Source: Cyanobacteria bacterium P01_A01_bin.123
Lineage (GTDB): Bacteria; Cyanobacteriota; Cyanobacteriia; Phormidesmidales; Phormidesmidaceae
DNA: 37,628 bases
NCBI GenBank assembly: GCA_039815185.1
Contig: JBCBZT010000062.1
Span: 1-37,628, forward strand
Direction: 5' to 3'
The notes below the pieces were generated by a model. That model was not told the DNA's origin and made no database searches. It was given only the letters and a program-made list of their open reading frames with translations. Position numbers and translations under genes: made by a program. Within the stretch, counting starts at the first letter, position 1; each line of letters starts with the position of its first letter. Positions 7,972-37,628 of the stretch are shown one piece after another.

Positions 7972-8093
7972 GGGCGTGTCATCAATAAACGCGAAAAGCT
8001 TTATGGCTGAGCCTTGCCACGCCCGACCCAACTCAATAAGGGTCTGTAACCGTTGTTCTAAAACCAATAGACAAGCTAATTGTTGACAGCCTC
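7972..8093. mobile_element. MITE copy 1 (~122 bp, TA-flanked)
   Basis: Ends GGGCGTGTCATCAATAA ... TAATTGTTGACAGCCTC are imperfect inverted repeats; TA at 7970-71 and 8094-95; homologous to 34183-34307. Confidence 0.8.
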
Positions 8094-30043: not shown

Positions 30044-31084
30044 TTAAAGTTGGAGATTGGGCCAGTCTGCGATCGCATCAGTTGACTTCACCAGGTGCAT
30101 ACCCGCATTGGCGTAGCGCTGAAAGGCTGCATTGGCGGGGTCAGTAAAGTCCACCACACCCGGTACGACCACCGGGGAAGTGCAGTCTTCTAGTAGGTAA
30201 ACCTTTTGGGCCAAGCTTGGATCTTGAGCCTGAATCTCTAACAGAAGATCGTCAATGGTCCAAGCAACACAGTGACTTTTGGCCTGTCCGGCAATGATGA
30301 TGGCATCAAACTTCAGCAGTTTTTCGATGAAACAGGTGTTTTTTTGAGCAATGGGGTGGCCATCAGCGTCATCAAGCACTTCTGGACTTAAAACGGAATA
30401 GTTTTCCGTTAATGGGTTACCCCCTTTGATTTCAAAGCGGGTTTGACTGTTGCGAGCCATATTGTGAAAGAAGCAGGCTTCTTCAACTGCTGACACTAGG
30501 GCATGGCCAATCCCCCCTAGCATTGAGTGGTAAGGCCAAATGGTCAGCGGATACTTATCGCGATCGCGGAGCTGCCGAGTGTAGTGCAGGGCGTAGGATT
30601 GCAGCACCTCATAATTACCATTGTCAATGCTATAGACAATATCAGGGTTGACCTGCCAAATCCCCTGCTGCACATCATCGTAGGTAATCATCGTCATTGG
30701 AGTCGGATTTGCACCCGCGTCATTCACCCAAAAGGCCGGGTGAAAAATTTGCATTGTAGTGTGGGTATCTAGGGTGGGGGCGATTTCGGTAATTAGCCCC
30801 AGGTTGCGATAGATAAACTCACACAGACGTTGATTGTCTTCCACTGCACCCATACCCGAGCGTCCCCCCACGAACAGCTCATGGTCTGGAATGCAGAACG
30901 TATTTTGCACATCGATAGCCATTAGGCAAATGCGCGTTTTGTCTTTGGCTGCTGGGGAAATTTGGTGTTGTTTAGCCCAGCTCTTGGCCTGCTCTGCCCG
31001 GTCTTGATAGGGCACACGCCAGATTTCCCCAACGCGATTGGCTTTGAAGAAAGGCGGGATGGGAAATTGGGTTAGGGTCGTCAT
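30044..31084 (-). CDS. Isochorismatase-superfamily cysteine hydrolase, probably nicotinamidase (PncA-like)
   Basis: IDVQNTFC, TLDTH, IWPYH, KG...TENYS, AGQAKSHCV; ATG 31084; NrtR-like box upstream. Confidence 0.85.
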   Translation of the reverse strand: MTTLTQFPIPPFFKANRVGEIWRVPYQDRAEQAKSWAKQHQISPAAKDKTRICLMAIDVQNTFCIPDHELFVGGRSGMGAVEDNQRLCEFIYRNLGLITEIAPTLDTHTTMQIFHPAFWVNDAGANPTPMTMITYDDVQQGIWQVNPDIVYSIDNGNYEVLQSYALHYTRQLRDRDKYPLTIWPYHSMLGGIGHALVSAVEEACFFHNMARNSQTRFEIKGGNPLTENYSVLSPEVLDDADGHPIAQKNTCFIEKLLKFDAIIIAGQAKSHCVAWTIDDLLLEIQAQDPSLAQKVYLLEDCTSPVVVPGVVDFTDPANAAFQRYANAGMHLVKSTDAIADWPNLQL

Positions 31085-31242
31085 GGGGTTGAAACTGTAA
31101 TCAGGAGGATTGGAATGGGTAGACCAACCAGGGCACAATTGCCCGCTTTGCACAACCGAAAAAGTTTAGAGAACGCTTTGAATCCAAGAAGCCGCTTGGC
31201 ATCAGCGAGAGGGAGCAAATTACTGTGCCACTTTTTAACATC

Positions 31243-31263
31243 TTAGTGTCAGAATAACACTTA
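31243..31263. promoter_or_regulatory. NrtR-like 21-bp operator
   Basis: TTAGTGT-CAGAATA-ACACTTA, a palindrome with a GT-N7-AC core, upstream of the nicotinamidase-like gene. Confidence 0.7.
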
Positions 31264-31678
31264 GAAACAATAATGACAAGTCCCCGATCGAGTTACCCTC
31301 TTGCCCATGAGTAGAATTGCAGGCAGCAGGAGCAGATTCATCGCCGGAAAGCTAGCCATCACGGCAGCCTTACCAAGGGTTCACAATTACTTCAGGGGGT
31401 TTTAACTTTAGCTTCCCGCAATGTTTGTTGTAATAGGGCGTAGTGCAAGCTGTTTATAGTCGAAAGGTCATTGTCTGGAGAGGCGCGGATTAGAATCTGA
31501 CTTGATCAATACCCAGGCGCAATCCTTGGAGCGTTCGCGCGCTCGTTGGGTGGGCATCCTAATTTTGAAATTGCTTTAATCCGGGTCAGGTGTTAGCAAG
31601 TTGGAGTACTATTCAGAGCTGCCTCACTTTCAAACAGATTGGGTTTATGGTCAACATTGACGGGCATAATTTATCTCT

Positions 31679-32299
31679 ATGGCAAGACTTTCAGTAGAAC
31701 TGGATCGGTTTTTCTTTGAGGAAGAACGGGCTCCCAAAGTGACCCTCAAAGATATCCTGGAACTCGCTGGGGAACGAACTTTCGGCTTTTTATTTGTACT
31801 GCTATCCATTCCGTCAGCCTTGCCAATTCCAGCGCCGGGGTATTCGATTCCGTTTGGGGTCGTGCTGTTGATCATTGCCATTCAGTTAGTGATCGGTCGT
31901 CAGCGACTTTGGTTTCCCAGATTTGTAGAGAGATGTGCCTTTGACCTCAAGAAGATACAAGGCATCGTCAAAGCGGCGATGCCCTGGTTAAGACGGATTG
32001 AGGCCGTTTCTAGACCGCGGCTGAGTTACATCTGCACCAGCTTGCCAGGGCGAGTGGTGATTGGCACTGCGATCGCGGTTATGTCAGTTTCAATGATGAC
32101 GCCCATCCCCCTAACCAATACGCTGCCCGCCATGGGCATCTTTGTGACTGGGTTTGGCTTGCTTGATGACGACGGCGCGATTAGCTTAGCAGGTCTAGTT
32201 GTTTGCCTGATGGGGGCAACCCTGACAACCCTGATTTTGATATTTGGCTATGAAGCGGTCAAAGCCGTAATCGATCTCATCCGCAACAGCCTGTTTTAA
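31679..32299 (+). CDS. exoD: ExoD-family exopolysaccharide synthesis membrane protein
   Basis: VTLKDIL...GERTFG...PSALPIPAPG...LWFP...PIPLTNTLPA...DDG. Confidence 0.9.
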   Translation: MARLSVELDRFFFEEERAPKVTLKDILELAGERTFGFLFVLLSIPSALPIPAPGYSIPFGVVLLIIAIQLVIGRQRLWFPRFVERCAFDLKKIQGIVKAAMPWLRRIEAVSRPRLSYICTSLPGRVVIGTAIAVMSVSMMTPIPLTNTLPAMGIFVTGFGLLDDDGAISLAGLVVCLMGATLTTLILIFGYEAVKAVIDLIRNSLF

Positions 32300-32306
32300 T
32301 CCGGGT

Positions 32307-32669
32307 CTACACCGCCGCTACGGGGGCAGGTTCGTAGAGATACTCAAACCAGTTCCCGTCTAAATCTTTGCCATAAAAGGAGGCAGTACCGTCGCGATGT
32401 TCGTGGATTTGGGTAACAAAGATGCCTTCTTTTTTGAGCCGTTCATAGGCGGCATCGACTTCGCTACGATCGTCAAACACAAAGCCAAAATGGGGGCCAG
32501 CTTGCTCATAACTCGGGCTCAGCAACGCTAATCCGTCATCTCCGGCTTTGAGATAGGCCCAATCAGCATCTTGCCAAGCCAATTCCATGCCTAGATTTTG
32601 ATAGAACTGAGCAGCTTTTTCGATGTCTTTAACACAAATGGCAACGTGCCCTAAACGCTTGATATTCAT
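32307..32669 (-). CDS. VOC/glyoxalase-family protein
   Basis: LGHVAICVKDIEKAAQFY...HFGF...SFYGKDLDGNWFE. Confidence 0.9.
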   Translation of the reverse strand: MNIKRLGHVAICVKDIEKAAQFYQNLGMELAWQDADWAYLKAGDDGLALLSPSYEQAGPHFGFVFDDRSEVDAAYERLKKEGIFVTQIHEHRDGTASFYGKDLDGNWFEYLYEPAPVAAV

Positions 32670-32884
32670 TGGGATTAACGGTGCCGATCGCGGCGTCTTC
32701 AATGGTTTTATTGTATCGCAGCCCCCGATAGGCAGGGTTGATAAGATAAAGACATCTGCTTGCCCTCCAGAGCAGCTAATGGCGACGTTACAGCACCGAC
32801 AACTCGATGAACCGTCAGAGCATCAACTTGTGCAACATCAGGTCAGCGGCTCAGCGATTGAGGCCAGCTTGACGGAGTATTAAT

Positions 32885-33802
32885 TTGTTACTGCGTCTCC
32901 CGTCCCAACCCAGCAAACCCGTGCTTTGCTTAGAAACCATTGCGGATCGCCTCAGCCATTACCATAGGCTTTTTAGCCTGGCCCAAGATATCGCCCAACT
33001 GCCTGAAGACTGCCTTGAGATCACGGTTGATTTTAGTTATTGCGAGTTTTTAGGACATTTTGGCGTTGCCTTTCTGGGGGGATTGGTTCACTTGATTCAA
33101 GCCCGTGGAGGCTGTGTTCACTTCGACTGGAAGGGGCTGCTGCCCAAGATTCGCACAAATCTAGCTCAAAATGGCTTCTTTCATCATTTTGGGGGCGGGG
33201 CTGAACCGTGGGATGGCAATTCGATTCCCTATCGGAGAGATCTGCAATACGACACAACCGATATCGGCGACTACCTGCGGTACAAATGGCTGGGCAAGGG
33301 GTGGGTCAACATTAGTCCGGGGCTACAAGCCGCGATCGCAGGGCAGGTTTCAGAAATCTACCTCAACGCGTTTGAACACAGTCAATCAAGCATTGGGGTC
33401 TTTAGCTGTGGACAGCACTATCCCAATCAAGGCATGCTCCATCTCACCGTCATTGACTTTGGCATCGGCATTCCGGCAAATGTCCGTTCACTTTCGCAAA
33501 ATGTCTCATTGACCCCTTCAGATGCCTTTGCCTGGGCATTCCAAGCTGGAACCACCACAAAAATCAATGGCATTTCCCGTGGATTAGGGTTAAATCTACT
33601 GCAAGCGTTCGTGATCCAAAATCATGGAAGTTTGATGATTTTCAGCAATGACGGTTATGTTGTTATAGACGGTAATGGTACTCAATATAGAAACAGTCAG
33701 GCTAGCTTTGCTGGAACGCTAGTCAATATTGCGTTTCAGTGTGACGAGCAATATTATTGCTTGGCTTCTGAGGTTCCACAACGCAATAAACCGCTATTTT
33801 AG
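32885..33802 (+). CDS. STAS-like domain plus HATPase_c (anti-sigma-type Ser kinase-like) protein
   Basis: N-terminal VDFSYCEFLGHFGVAFL...GGCV...PKIRTNLAQNGF resembles SpoIIAA; GHKL boxes SEIYLNAFEHS (N), IDFGIGI (G1), RGLGL (G2), GTLV (G3); start TTG 32885 or GTG 32921. Confidence 0.85.
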   Translation: MLLRLPSQPSKPVLCLETIADRLSHYHRLFSLAQDIAQLPEDCLEITVDFSYCEFLGHFGVAFLGGLVHLIQARGGCVHFDWKGLLPKIRTNLAQNGFFHHFGGGAEPWDGNSIPYRRDLQYDTTDIGDYLRYKWLGKGWVNISPGLQAAIAGQVSEIYLNAFEHSQSSIGVFSCGQHYPNQGMLHLTVIDFGIGIPANVRSLSQNVSLTPSDAFAWAFQAGTTTKINGISRGLGLNLLQAFVIQNHGSLMIFSNDGYVVIDGNGTQYRNSQASFAGTLVNIAFQCDEQYYCLASEVPQRNKPLF

Positions 33803-33835
33803 AGATCAGGCATTGAGGGAAGAGGAGAGTCAGCC

Positions 33836-34183
33836 ATGAAATTACAAATCTGCGCCATTACTGGAGAATACGCGACTGATGCTGACAGTGGCCAGCAGAT
33901 ATACGAGGCCATCCATCCTCAACTCTTGGCGGGTGAAGCTGTTGAGCTAGACTTCACCACAGTCAATGTTTTCGCATCTGCATTTTTCAACTTCGCGATT
34001 GGTCAACTGCTTCAAGATCTCTCCCCGGATACCCTCAATCATCAGCTCAAGATTGAAGGGTTATCTCCCCACGGGTACAGCATCCTCAAGCGCGTGATCG
34101 ACAATGCCAAGCATTATTACGCCGATGCTCAGTACCAAGCAGCGGTTGACACTGTGATGGAAGAATACGCTGCTAGTTTCTAG
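33836..34183 (+). CDS. Stand-alone STAS-like protein (DUF4325-like)
   Basis: GQQIYEAI...VELDFTTVNVFASAFFNFAIGQL; purine-rich RBS (GAGGAG) upstream. Confidence 0.85.
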   Translation: MKLQICAITGEYATDADSGQQIYEAIHPQLLAGEAVELDFTTVNVFASAFFNFAIGQLLQDLSPDTLNHQLKIEGLSPHGYSILKRVIDNAKHYYADAQYQAAVDTVMEEYAASF

Positions 34184-34307
34184 GGCGTGTCATCAATTAA
34201 TCACCGAGGCTTTACGGTATGAGCCTTGCCATGCCCGCTTAGACTAAACAAGCTAGGAGCTGGATCCCTCATTTTGAAAGTATATGAAGCTAATTGATGA
34301 CAGCCCC
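34183..34307. mobile_element. MITE copy 2 (~125 bp) inserted at TA within CTAG
   Basis: TIRs GGGCGTGTCATCAATTA / TAATTGATGACAGCCCC (15/17 match); TA at 34181-82 and 34308-09. Confidence 0.88.
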
Positions 34308-34313
34308 TAGTTC

Positions 34314-34943
34314 ATGCCAATTAATCTCACTGTCCAAGCGGATGTTGTTGATGTTCGCGAGGATACGCCACGTCAAGACGACATTTTTCTGGTGGATACC
34401 AATGTTTGGTTGTGGCAAACCTATACGAACGCGATCGCCACATCTCGTTGGGCACCCAACAAAATTCGAGCTTACACCCCTTACCTCAGTAAATCTCGGC
34501 GGAGTGGGGCAACGCTGGCCTACACGGGGTTAATCTTGTCAGAACTGGCCCATGTGATTGAGAAAACAGAACGGGAAATTTATAGTCGCCGGACCAGACG
34601 GTCTTTGCCACCGAAAGAGTATCGCCACAATACCCCCAATGAACGAGCCAATGTTGTCGCTGAGGTTAAATCGGCCTGGCAACAGGTGGAGGGGTTAGCT
34701 GTTCCTCTCGATTTGACGATCAATGAAGAGACGACCCGTGCTTCACTCCAGCGCTTCGGGATGCAAGCGCTGGACGGTTATGATTTGCTGATTTTAGAAG
34801 CGATCGGTAGGGCGGGTGTCGGGCAAATCAAGGTGATTACCGATGATATGGACTATGCAGTCGTCCCCCATATTCAACTCTTTACCGCTAACGATTTGGT
34901 CATTCAACAGGCTAGAGCACAAAGGAAGCTACGTTTGCGTTAA
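34314..34943 (+). CDS. PIN-domain ribonuclease
   Basis: Acidic tetrad intact: FLVDTNVW, LSELAHV, LDGYDLLI, ITDDMDY. Confidence 0.88.
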   Translation: MPINLTVQADVVDVREDTPRQDDIFLVDTNVWLWQTYTNAIATSRWAPNKIRAYTPYLSKSRRSGATLAYTGLILSELAHVIEKTEREIYSRRTRRSLPPKEYRHNTPNERANVVAEVKSAWQQVEGLAVPLDLTINEETTRASLQRFGMQALDGYDLLILEAIGRAGVGQIKVITDDMDYAVVPHIQLFTANDLVIQQARAQRKLRLR

Positions 34944-35140
34944 AGGCATCGCTAAAATAGACGCAATATTATGCGGCCTGCTCTTGCTTGACGGTCACAG
35001 ACAGCTTTAAGCCTAGTTCGTTAAGCAATAGAGACTTGGTGAGATACGTACGGTAACGCTTATGAGTCGGCATTTTTTCTCTTCTGGAAATCTGCCCAGT
35101 TTAGCTAGTATAAAGGCACTTTGTTTTGCCAAAGACGCTG

Positions 35141-35791
35141 ATGGTGACCTTGCAACTCCGACAACTTGATGTGCCCCCTGGGCAGCGGCTTTTGCTGCAC
35201 GATGTCAGTTGGGTTGAATTTGAGGCAATTTTGACAGAACTGGGTGATCAGCGAGGTTCCCGTATTGCTTACAACAACGGCTTGTTAGAAATTATGGCTC
35301 CGCTGGCAGAGCATGAAGATGATAAGGAAATCATTAGTGATTTTCTAAAGGTGTTTTTAGAAGAGCTAGATATTGAATTCCGAGCTTTGGGATCAACCAC
35401 CTTCAAGAATGCAGCGATGTTGAAGGGAATTGAACCGGATCAGTGCTTTTACATTCAAAATGAGTCGGCGATTCGGGGAAAGAAGCGATTGGATCTGATG
35501 GTTGACCCACCGCCGGACTTAGCGCTGGAGGTGGATGTGACGTCCCGGACGCATCCGGAGACCTACGCAGCATTGGGGGTGCCAGAGTTGTGGCGGCGGG
35601 TTGATGGGGTGATTCGGATCTATCGATTGCAGGCTGGGGAGTATGTCGAGGTTGCGGAGAGTGGTTTGTTTGCGGGATGGGCATTGCAGATTGAGATTCC
35701 GAAGTATTTGGAGATGAGTCGGGTTGAGGGGCGGAATCGGGCGGTGCGGGCGTTTCGTGAGTGGGTGAGGAAACAGCTCGGTCAAACTTGA
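35141..35791 (+). CDS. Uma2/DUF820 PD-(D/E)xK endonuclease-like protein
   Basis: LLHDVSWVEFE, LEIMAPLAEHE, IEPDQCFY, PPPDLALEVD, YAALGVPELW. Confidence 0.93.
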   Translation: MVTLQLRQLDVPPGQRLLLHDVSWVEFEAILTELGDQRGSRIAYNNGLLEIMAPLAEHEDDKEIISDFLKVFLEELDIEFRALGSTTFKNAAMLKGIEPDQCFYIQNESAIRGKKRLDLMVDPPPDLALEVDVTSRTHPETYAALGVPELWRRVDGVIRIYRLQAGEYVEVAESGLFAGWALQIEIPKYLEMSRVEGRNRAVRAFREWVRKQLGQT

Positions 35792-35944
35792 GCAAATCCT
35801 ACAGGAAGGAGCAACAAAAGGGGGCCTATAAAGATAGGCAACAACTGTAGAGATTTATGTGACGAGAAATAGAAAAGTGAAATAATCTTATGTCCTCATC
35901 ATAAAATTGATACACTTTACATTTTAAGTAAAAGTGTACTATCT

Positions 35945-37135
35945 ATGCTATCCCCGAATCGTATCAAACCATCTGTCTTAGATATATTTTCCGGAGCAGG
36001 AGGGATGAGCCTCGGATTCCAAAGAGCTGGCTGTGCAATATTAGGTGGCATTGACGAGAACAAATATGCTGTTGAAACCCATCACAAAAATTTCCCTAGA
36101 TGCAAACTTAGGTTACCTCCTCAAGACATACGTAAATTGCTTGATCTTAAGTCACTGGGTATAAAACCTGGTGAGATAGACATTCTAATTGGTGGTCCAC
36201 CATGTCAAGTTTTTTCAAGAGTTGGCTTGGGAAAAATGAAACGAGATCTAAATAGGAATATCCAGGAAGATCATAGGAACTTTCTCTATAAAGAGTATGT
36301 AAGGTTTTTAAATTACTATAAACCACTCTTTTTCATAATGGAAAACGTTGACAATCTAGCACATAAGAAAAAATTAATGGGGGAAATAAAGGATGAATTA
36401 ATTGCATGTGGATATCGAGTAGATTCTAAGGTGTTAGATGCATCAAAGTTCGGGGTTCCTCAAAGAAGATTGAGAGTCTTTATTGTTGGTGTACGTGAAG
36501 ACCTAAAGTGGAATCCAGTTTTCCCAAAAGAGCGTCATAAAAAATCTTTAACTGTAGGTGAGGCCATCGGAGATCTACCTGAACTGCAAGCTTTTTCAAT
36601 GCCACTAAAAGAAAAATCTAGTGGCCCAAGACAAAAAGACTCTAACTTGCCTTATAGAACCGAACCTTTATCAAATTATCAAAGAATTATGAGGCGATAT
36701 AATGGATCAAATGTACGTAATCATCTGTGCCGCGCACACAATTATGAGGATTTAAGCATATTTGAAATGCTAAATCAAGGTGAAAGATATCGAGACTTAC
36801 CCAAAGAAGTGATGAGATATCGGGTTGACATTTTTGATGATAAATACAAGAAACTAATCTGGAATGAGCCATCTTGGACACTTACGGCTCACATGAGGAA
36901 GGATTGCTTGGCTTATATTCATCCTTTTCAAAACAGGAGCATTTCTGTTAGAGAAGCTGCAAGAATTCAAAGTTTTCCTGATAATTTTATATTTTATGCA
37001 CCAATGACACGGATGTTTGAACTTGTAGGAAACTCCGTACCTCCACTGTTAGCAGAAGCCGTCGCAAAACCGATAGTAAAACTAGTTCGCGAGCATTACG
37101 CAAGTAAAATTAGCAGGTCAACTTTAGCATCGTAG
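35945..37135 (+). CDS. DNA (cytosine-5) methyltransferase
   Basis: FSGAGG (I), GGPPCQ (IV), ENV (VI), QRRLR (VIII), REAARIQSFP (IX), GNSVPP (X); AT-rich. Confidence 0.96.
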   Translation: MLSPNRIKPSVLDIFSGAGGMSLGFQRAGCAILGGIDENKYAVETHHKNFPRCKLRLPPQDIRKLLDLKSLGIKPGEIDILIGGPPCQVFSRVGLGKMKRDLNRNIQEDHRNFLYKEYVRFLNYYKPLFFIMENVDNLAHKKKLMGEIKDELIACGYRVDSKVLDASKFGVPQRRLRVFIVGVREDLKWNPVFPKERHKKSLTVGEAIGDLPELQAFSMPLKEKSSGPRQKDSNLPYRTEPLSNYQRIMRRYNGSNVRNHLCRAHNYEDLSIFEMLNQGERYRDLPKEVMRYRVDIFDDKYKKLIWNEPSWTLTAHMRKDCLAYIHPFQNRSISVREAARIQSFPDNFIFYAPMTRMFELVGNSVPPLLAEAVAKPIVKLVREHYASKISRSTLAS

Positions 37136-37170
37136 AAATTCAGAACACTCTCGCTATATTGATCATCTAT

Positions 37171-37490
37171 TTATTGACTACTCTGATTATATATTTCGAT
37201 GAATTCACTGTGATATTGTTTTGACTGTTCGAGCAGCTCCCTATAAGTTTTTACGAAAACTTCCCCAGATGCCCTGTAGGTCTTTTCTTTCTGCTTAAAG
37301 GGGCCATCAGTTGATTTCTCGCCGCCAACGACGAAGGAAACTACTTTCGAAAATCCCGACTCAGTTGCATACTTATCAGTCAGAAAAGCACCATATCCCC
37401 AAGCCTGCTCGAGCGCCTTCATATCTATTTTATACTTACTTCTTTTTATCTCAATAACATATAGAATGCCTCCCAAAGCATTGCTACATA
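37171..37490 (-). pseudogene. 3' fragment of a PD-(D/E)xK nuclease-like gene interrupted by an IS
   Basis: The frame reads LCSNALGGILYVIEIKR...ALEQAWGY...KTYRELLEQSKQYHSEF and is cut at the IS end at 37491; no convincing native start; AT-rich like the MTase. Confidence 0.7.
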
Positions 37491-37628
37491 GGGCTCGCTG
37501 AAAAAGTCACTTTTGACGATTTTGTGAAACGGTAGCGCGATCAGACGTGTCCGGCAGACAGTGGTTAAGGTCATGCTTTGGCGAAGGTGTGACGGCCTTG
37601 CCAGGGAGCGACCGTAAGTCGCCAAAAA
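37491..37628 (-). mobile_element. End of an IS5-like insertion sequence or derivative (continues beyond the window)
   Basis: Abrupt composition change after TA (37489-90); terminus GGGCTCGCTGAAAAAGTC; an open minus-strand frame runs from the edge through the IR as ...SDFFSEP and stops at 37446. The family call rests on recalled end sequences. Confidence 0.65.

Follow-up and report, generated by a model that had tools for sequence, protein, structure and literature searches.

What would a STAS-domain kinase do when it is encoded in front of a small STAS protein and a candidate nuclease? The question is raised by three genes on contig JBCBZT010000062.1 of Cyanobacteria bacterium P01_A01_bin.123 (assembly GCA_039815185.1), of which a stretch of 37,628 nucleotides, called the window here, was analysed. 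A sequence-only reading had taken the three genes for a novel partner switch that controls a toxin or an anti-phage response. Sequence matches and structure models now indicate that they are very probably this cyanobacterium's version of vapKSC, an operon with toxin-antitoxin and anti-phage functions which was named, solved and tested by Chambers et al (EMBO J 2026, PMC13373217; structure PDB 9Z7O), and which also appears in their bioRxiv preprint. The system is already known, and its cyanobacterial members are within the published catalogue. The exception is a MITE (miniature inverted-repeat transposable element) ahead of vapC, which varies between strains.

Identity of the operon

The three open reading frames (ORFs) all lie on the plus strand where the sequence-only reading had placed them: vapK at 32885..33802 (305 aa, with a TTG start and GGAG 7 nt upstream), vapS at 33836..34183 (115 aa) and vapC at 34314..34943 (209 aa). 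Each is single-copy in the assembly, with a GC content of 0.48-0.50 against 0.50 for the genome. The genes had been called closely spaced, which holds for vapK and vapS (33 nt apart) and not for vapS and vapC, which are separated by 130 nt compared with 2-3 nt in most relatives. The second gap is long because a 125-bp MITE was inserted there, at 34183..34307.

In a PDB sequence search the 115-aa STAS protein matched chain A of 9Z7O, "Escherichia VapS" (E 1.1e-18), and the third protein matched chain C, "Escherichia VapC" (E 1.2e-40). The key residues S48 of VapS and D28 of VapC have the same numbers here and in the Escherichia proteins. Compared with vapKSC of Escherichia sp. E4736, the window has the same gene order, domain make-up and protein sizes, the same VapS S48, VapC D28 and VapS C-terminal helix, and it matches VapK F54 and N160 with F55 and N161. 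It differs in the 125-bp MITE between vapS and vapC and in VapK K180/K181, which are replaced by N181/Q182 in a variable loop. With these matches to a published system, the claim of novelty fell.

The published set has 289 loci, many of them cyanobacterial, and 103 of them (36%) are at most 10 kb from another immune gene (PMC13373217). Two of the cyanobacterial loci found here, L003 and L008, encode VapK, VapS and VapC proteins that are 64, 52 and 56% and 60, 48 and 56% identical to those of the window, respectively. The organisms of L003, L008 and L024 are present in Dataset EV3 of PMC13373217, matched by organism name and not by gene identifier. The EV3 organisms found in this way include two of the cyanobacteria, Nostoc sp. 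PA-18-2419 and Anabaena sp. UHCC 0204, and Deinococcus gobiensis, a plasmid of which carries the three genes in K-S-C order with a kinase 25% identical to VapK.

Automated libraries did not make this identification. The sequence-only reading had proposed a DefenseFinder/PADLOC-type check; PADLOC was run, and in PADLOC 2.0 and NCBIfam 20.0 the three proteins found no meaningful match, only weak DrmA pieces (E 0.0014 and 0.023). This silence was considered as a sign of novelty and rejected, being attributed to the age of the libraries. A group of PIN proteins coupled to DUF4325 genes was already part of the 2017 PIN classification (PMC5499597); VapC is likened to its PIN.4 group by description and not by profile.

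VapS, VapC and their complex

VapS belongs to Pfam family DUF4325 (E 2.3e-16) and consists of a STAS domain and helices, including a short C-terminal helix at residues 98-113. Residue 48, the predicted phosphoacceptor, is Ser in 20 and Thr in one of the 21 relatives. A fold search ranked RsbV (6M36) first and SpoIIAA (1TID) fourth, both weakly (E 0.11-0.2). That Ser48 sits at the phosphoacceptor position of SpoIIAA had been claimed from an ungapped alignment. The serine is present and PMC13373217 places VapS S48 at the equivalent site; the residue-level alignment to SpoIIAA was not reproduced.

The third protein had been read as a PIN nuclease with its acidic residues, and this assignment stands. 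Pfam gave no match for it, PIN included; its PIN identity rests on the match to 9Z7O and on the Pfam PIN match of the Deinococcus member. Six acidic positions (D28, E77, D154, D157, D178 and D180) are intact in the window and kept in 18 of 18 intact relatives.

VapC and VapS of the window were modelled together. The complex model scored 0.90 where the best control scored 0.00, the contacts agreed 100% between runs, and the predicted local distance difference test (pLDDT) value of each partner was at least 93; the mark used is reached by 116 of 157 solved pairs and by 2 of 215 mismatched pairs. In the model, VapS S48 contacts VapC residues 35-38 and 124, and the interface takes in VapS 99-115 and VapC 85-93 and 176-179, in agreement with the description of the crystal. 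The model is a measure of likeness to a solved complex of the same kind, not of binding. For the Escherichia proteins, PMC13373217 reports that VapC is toxic and its D28A mutant is not, that VapS neutralises VapC, that neutralisation is lost when the VapS C-terminus is deleted or S48 is changed to E, and that the VapS-VapC structure is a 2:2 assembly from which S48E releases VapC.

The system shares a PIN/VapC-type toxin with the VapBC systems and differs from them in its antitoxin, which is a putatively phosphorylatable STAS protein and not VapB. The sequence-only reading had found no VapB-type antitoxin in the locus, and there is none: the gene upstream of vapC is the DUF4325 gene vapS, and the gap between them wholly contains no ORF of 50 aa or more. 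An antitoxin is present all the same, in the form of VapS.

The kinase VapK

The kinase was predicted with AlphaFold2 from a 126-sequence alignment (pLDDT 94.6, predicted template modelling score 0.92). In the model, residues 1-104 align to the STAS domains of anti-sigma antagonists (best Z 10.8, root-mean-square deviation (rmsd) 2.1, 96 residues aligned), and residues 111-289 form a GHKL kinase domain that aligns to SpoIIAB (1L0O; Z 13.7, rmsd 2.6, 136 aligned). Foldseek also ranked SpoIIAB first. Pfam found HATPase_c (E 1.6e-6) and a weak STAS_2. No His-phosphotransfer domain is present between the STAS and GHKL domains of the model, and no helix-turn-helix (HTH) precedes the STAS domain, with which the protein begins. 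The GHKL box residues E157, N161, H165, D191-G193-G195 and G233-G235 are all there. The architecture proposed earlier, an N-terminal STAS domain with complete GHKL boxes and without a His-phosphotransfer domain, is thus the one seen in Pfam and in the model.

VapK has no solved structure in the PDB: a phmmer search with the kinase as query found 0 matches there, and a profile search gave only generic GHKL and STAS matches. Many close homologues cover 99-100% of its 305 aa. Conservation was compared in 119 close kinases and in a distant set of 117 full-length representatives, obtained from 150 by dropping the 33 sequences of less than 270 aa. Every kinase of both sets has E157 and N161. F55 is kept in 117 of the 119 close and 88 of the 117 distant kinases, and is W in L024. 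Mapped by eye on Appendix Table S2, F55 corresponds to F54 of Escherichia VapK, the predicted stacking residue for single-stranded DNA (ssDNA), and N161 to N160 of the N-box. By a hand count, the VapK numbers in the text of PMC13373217 (F54, N160, K180, K181) are 5 above the sequence listed in that table.

Two other features of the kinase turned out to be variable. Basic residues are missing altogether from the loop that holds K180/K181 in Escherichia in 29 of the 119 close homologues, in 21 of the 117 distant ones and in L008, and the lysine pair was rejected as a defining feature. The His that had been noticed in the STAS domain of the kinase is present here as His58, yet it is not a family invariant: it is H in 112 of 119 close homologues versus 19 of 117 distant ones, and it was rejected as a functional phosphoacceptor on that count. 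Among the homologues themselves, the nine long ones scanned (370-404 aa) have no common extra domain. P0121, P0163 and P0207 carry about 90 additional N-terminal residues, which include CxxC-like motifs and find nothing in Pfam; P0191 and P0242 are fused to pieces of restriction systems and are possibly miscalled.

The nearest solved folds are therefore those of the SpoIIAB/SpoIIAA and RsbW/RsbV switches, clearly for the kinase and weakly for the small STAS protein. The window system differs from those switches in that a STAS domain is part of the kinase and the partner bound by the STAS substrate is a nuclease. In addition, a domain scan of 39 of the 61 ORFs in the window, the only region searched, revealed neither a sigma factor nor a PP2C domain; the remaining 22 are mostly short overlapping frames. 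Within that scope, the earlier remark that the locus is without both stands. With a kinase fold closest to SpoIIAB and a small protein closest to RsbV and SpoIIAA, one could imagine that the pair acts on a sigma factor from another part of the genome, as classical partner switches do, and that the PIN gene is merely carried along. This is hardly credible, given that all 14 kinase-found loci have the PIN gene next in order and that the VapS-VapC complex is solved in 9Z7O and modelled for the window pair.

Gene order and decay in relatives

A scan of species genomes found the K-S-C order in all 14 cyanobacterial loci in which the kinase was found. Together with the Deinococcus plasmid, this bears out the earlier expectation that the three-gene order is conserved elsewhere. 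The vapS-vapC gap is about 2-3 nt in most of these 14 loci. VapC matches occurred in 7 of 60 other sampled relatives, a patchy spread that is typical for such systems.

Among 21 other loci, 12 are intact, two are cut by contig ends and seven have a broken or missing gene (L011, L012, L014, L019, L002, L020/L023 and L021). Four of the seven retain intact vapS and vapC genes but no whole vapK, which is lost, truncated or interrupted by a 1.5-kb insertion; in two, vapC is broken by a frameshift; in one, vapS is absent, and there the vapC match begins only at residue 65 and does not include D28. Counted from the toxin, vapC is intact in 17 of the 21, and of these 17 all have an intact vapS and four have a lost or broken vapK. 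At the sequence level this is the pattern that would be expected if VapS is the antitoxin and VapK only the trigger, which makes it supportive of that division of roles, not a set of independent statistics.

Some relatives have long vapS-vapC gaps unrelated to the MITE: about 90 nt in L017 (2110-2190, minus strand), where an upstream vapC start may be used instead, and about 115 nt in L023 (1383-1497), both in one genus. Tight coupling is therefore not universal, as L017 and L020/L023 demonstrate.

The neighbours of these loci were also recorded. A uvrB gene lies in 8 of the 14 kinase-found loci (L001-L005, L008, L009 and L013), all from Nostocales, either converging with vapKSC or within about 3 kb of it. 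It is downstream of vapC on the opposite strand, Pfam-confirmed in three loci and recognised in the others by a shared N-terminus, and the neighbourhood may be one inherited insertion. CapK signalling, from a related system discussed below, depends on UvrA/UvrB according to PMC13373217. Other neighbours are a terminase gene (prophage), a UvrD-like helicase and a type I restriction subunit (L006 3638-5161; L007 4321-5871; L012 2885-5875). Synteny with a glyoxalase gene was uninformative: the gene is present in 6 of 12 relatives and never beside vapK, and the single congener has no match.

Mechanism and trigger

At rest, VapS would hold VapC, with its C-terminal helix blocking the RNA-binding cleft and Ser48 buried in the interface. 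ssDNA arising from DNA damage, repair or phage infection would bind a groove of VapK between the STAS and GHKL domains and stack on F55, switching the kinase on. Active VapK would then phosphorylate VapS Ser48, the VapS-VapC complex would dissociate, and the freed VapC would cut cellular RNA, leading to growth arrest or abortive infection. This sequence, from ssDNA through VapK and S48 phosphorylation to free VapC, is in our judgement the best model, and a highly probable one.

Much of the model is carried by experiments on the Escherichia operon, which gives about 2-log protection against phage Bas42 that is lost in VapC D28A, VapS S48A and VapK F54A (PMC13373217). S48E frees VapC, and S48A and F54A abolish protection; therefore, phosphorylation by an ATP-using kinase is the ON signal. 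Activation by ssDNA and serine phosphorylation were demonstrated with purified parts for CapK (PMC13373217). The CapK-CapS system described there has the same STAS-GHKL kinase, a STAS substrate with a conserved Ser and an aromatic residue for ssDNA stacking (CapK W68). It differs in an N-terminal HTH of CapK and a C-terminal winged HTH of CapS, a transcription repressor, which are absent here, where the output would be toxin release. Two proposals of the sequence-only reading find support in this work: a SpoIIAB/SpoIIAA-type partner switch rewired to gate an RNase with Ser48 as the switch residue, which agrees with the published account as well as with the residues and gene order here, and an anti-phage role, since the Escherichia orthologue protects against a phage.

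The same reading had proposed another trigger, in which a drop in ATP, or a phage protein that perturbs the kinase, makes the kinase and STAS protein let go of VapC. SpoIIAB-SpoIIAA behaviour depends on ADP and ATP, which counts for an ATP trigger, and the loop lysines drawn at the ssDNA site are missing here. PMC13373217 also gives no direct demonstration of the VapK ligand. Against it, S48A abolishes and S48E mimics activation, while phosphate transfer needs ATP; F54A at the predicted ssDNA site abolishes protection; and ssDNA switches on CapK, a homologue, in assays of purified components (all PMC13373217). This trigger is very unlikely. Release upon a fall in ATP is probably wrong, as it runs in the opposite direction to the S48E and S48A results, and a phage protein as ligand of VapK is possible and has no support.

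Several points weigh against carrying the ssDNA-triggered model over to the window. In PMC13373217, activation of VapK by ssDNA and phosphorylation of VapS are predicted only, the Escherichia VapK being insoluble. That the window copy works like its Escherichia orthologue is suggested by orthology, residues, gene order and the complex model, and the comparison of the two kinases was made by eye. K180/K181, which are drawn at the ssDNA site in Escherichia, are N181/Q182 here. The pattern of gene loss comes from related Nostoc loci and metagenome-assembled genomes, which may carry assembly errors. Lastly, the MITE separates vapS from vapC where the junction is otherwise tight, and toxin output may be lower as a result. 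A cyanobacterial VapK without the loop lysines may read a different nucleic-acid signal. Whether the system is mainly anti-phage or serves a general DNA-damage response is left open in PMC13373217.

A strain-variable MITE between antitoxin and toxin

The MITE (34183..34307, no strand assigned) has 17-bp imperfect terminal inverted repeats and is inserted in the vapS stop codon. Its insertion duplicated TA, at 34181-34182 and 34308-34309, and excising the MITE with one TA in silico leaves a vapS-vapC gap of 3 nt. The family has 28 profile matches in the genome, 20 of them near full length, including one in the window at about 7972-8093; the other BLAST copies are 70-75% identical to the copy at 34183-34307. 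No autonomous transposase was apparent beside eight solo MITE-like ends, judged by eye from ORF starts without scanning the proteins, and the MITE is assigned to no IS family.

Strains were compared using contigs from 4 of 11 sequencing runs; no RNA run was among those listed, and gaps in cover over the methyltransferase are not counted as evidence. Contigs of runs X2 and X6, from two studies, skip exactly 127 nt, joining 34179 to 34307, and thus have the empty site. The X2 contig, from the same study as the possible source run, is 99% and 97% identical to the window on either side of the joint, and the X6 contig about 95%. The filled site is spanned by a contig of X5, from a third study, and a contig of X9 covers the left junction. 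Close strains thus differ in whether they carry the insertion.

Folded as RNA, the MITE forms a hairpin of -46.3 kcal/mol (z -3.26), a stability reached by 1 of 200 shuffles. The hairpin covers the vapS stop, and 3 nt separate its end from the vapC AUG. Co-transcribed MITE-like elements can change mRNA stability, according to a review (PMC3184786). The MITE might thus be a strain-variable control of the toxin, in which the hairpin hides the vapC start unless ribosomes terminating on vapS open it, or in which it creates a processing site; this is a tentative idea, and we would not bet on it. An Rfam search of 31000-37628 gave 0 matches, and a promoter and terminator scan was uninformative, with one site each, under the shuffle means of 2.9 and 2.7.

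Another reading is that the switch is the same and this copy is damped or silenced, the hairpin blocking vapC translation or splitting the transcript so that the toxin is barely made. The stability and placement of the hairpin favour this, as does the 3-nt junction of the empty allele, which is that of most relatives. Decay is also common, with 7 of the 21 other loci having a broken or missing gene (the two contig-end loci not counted among them). On the other side, the three ORFs and every tested catalytic residue are intact, the filled allele recurs in a run of another study (X5), and ribosomes that stop at the vapS stop, in the 5' arm, could open the stem. Differences from the empty-site strain also fall mostly at third positions: over the three ORFs, 24 of the 29 differences listed between X2 and the window do so, a list that is complete for vapK and vapS and may be partial for vapC. 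By sequence, the vapKSC ORFs look maintained. We consider a damped copy improbable, and the ssDNA-triggered switch remains the preferred reading.

X2 has zero differences from the window over 31951-33477 and many from 33478 on, which may point to a recombination event inside vapK. The literature searched, which did not include most subscription papers, yielded no report of a MITE in vapKSC.

Genomic neighbourhood

Directly before vapK is a degenerate 5' remnant of a uma2 gene (32767..32883, plus strand; tblastn 54% over 37 aa, E 5e-4), which holds the GGAG in front of the vapK start. An intact gene for a putative Uma2 endonuclease follows vapC at 35126..35791 (plus strand); it lies outside the system, and tblastn gives about 14 such matches across the genome, this one among them. 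With a remnant on one side and an intact gene on the other, a uma2 gene may have been the site at which the operon came in.

Further downstream are a Dcm-type C5 methyltransferase gene (35945..37135, plus strand; GC 0.38 versus 0.50 for the genome) and, on the minus strand at 37171..37490, a C-terminal piece that belongs to a BbrUII/HgiDII-like restriction enzyme (matching positions 548-647 of the NCBIfam profile NF050001, E 5.9e-4). The piece is cut by the end of an insertion sequence (IS), a repeated element at 37491..37628 with no strand assigned, where the contig stops; this end is common to five contig ends at 99-100%, and no transposase was read in it. On contig C59, a piece that matches NF050001 profile positions 3-537 ends at the other type of IS end (L025 14686-16348). 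We infer that the two pieces are one gene split by the IS, with the methyltransferase left intact. A second, unrelated VapC gene adjoins the N-terminal piece on C59 (L025 13669-14061).

The X2 and X6 contigs turn to unlike sequence after 35770 and 34970, respectively, and vapKSC therefore borders a strain-variable stretch. The sequence-only reading had seen a defence hotspot in the adjacent Uma2, methyltransferase and IS. The adjacency of Uma2, the Dcm methyltransferase and the IS end is real, and the hotspot is modest: it amounts to one restriction-modification pair, of which the endonuclease is split by the IS. The neighbourhood forms a small cluster of defence genes, which is consistent with the 36% of published loci that have other immune genes nearby.

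Significance

As a discovery the locus has little weight, as the system was named, solved and tested in 2026 with cyanobacterial members catalogued. PADLOC 2.0 and NCBIfam 20.0 do not recognise the family, and vapKSC therefore keeps looking new to automated scans. The divergent VapK orthologue offers another candidate for purification at the key step, the proposed ssDNA-activated phosphorylation of VapS, for which the Escherichia kinase is insoluble. With both MITE alleles, filled and empty, available in close strains, the way in which toxin dosage is set can be tested cleanly. If the tentative idea of MITE control is true, the element would set a new balance between antitoxin and toxin, and strains that carry it would differ from those that lack it in the thresholds of DNA damage or phage infection at which they arrest. 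The two alleles would then be a natural experiment on the dosing of a kinase-gated toxin that has no known phosphatase or autorepressor.

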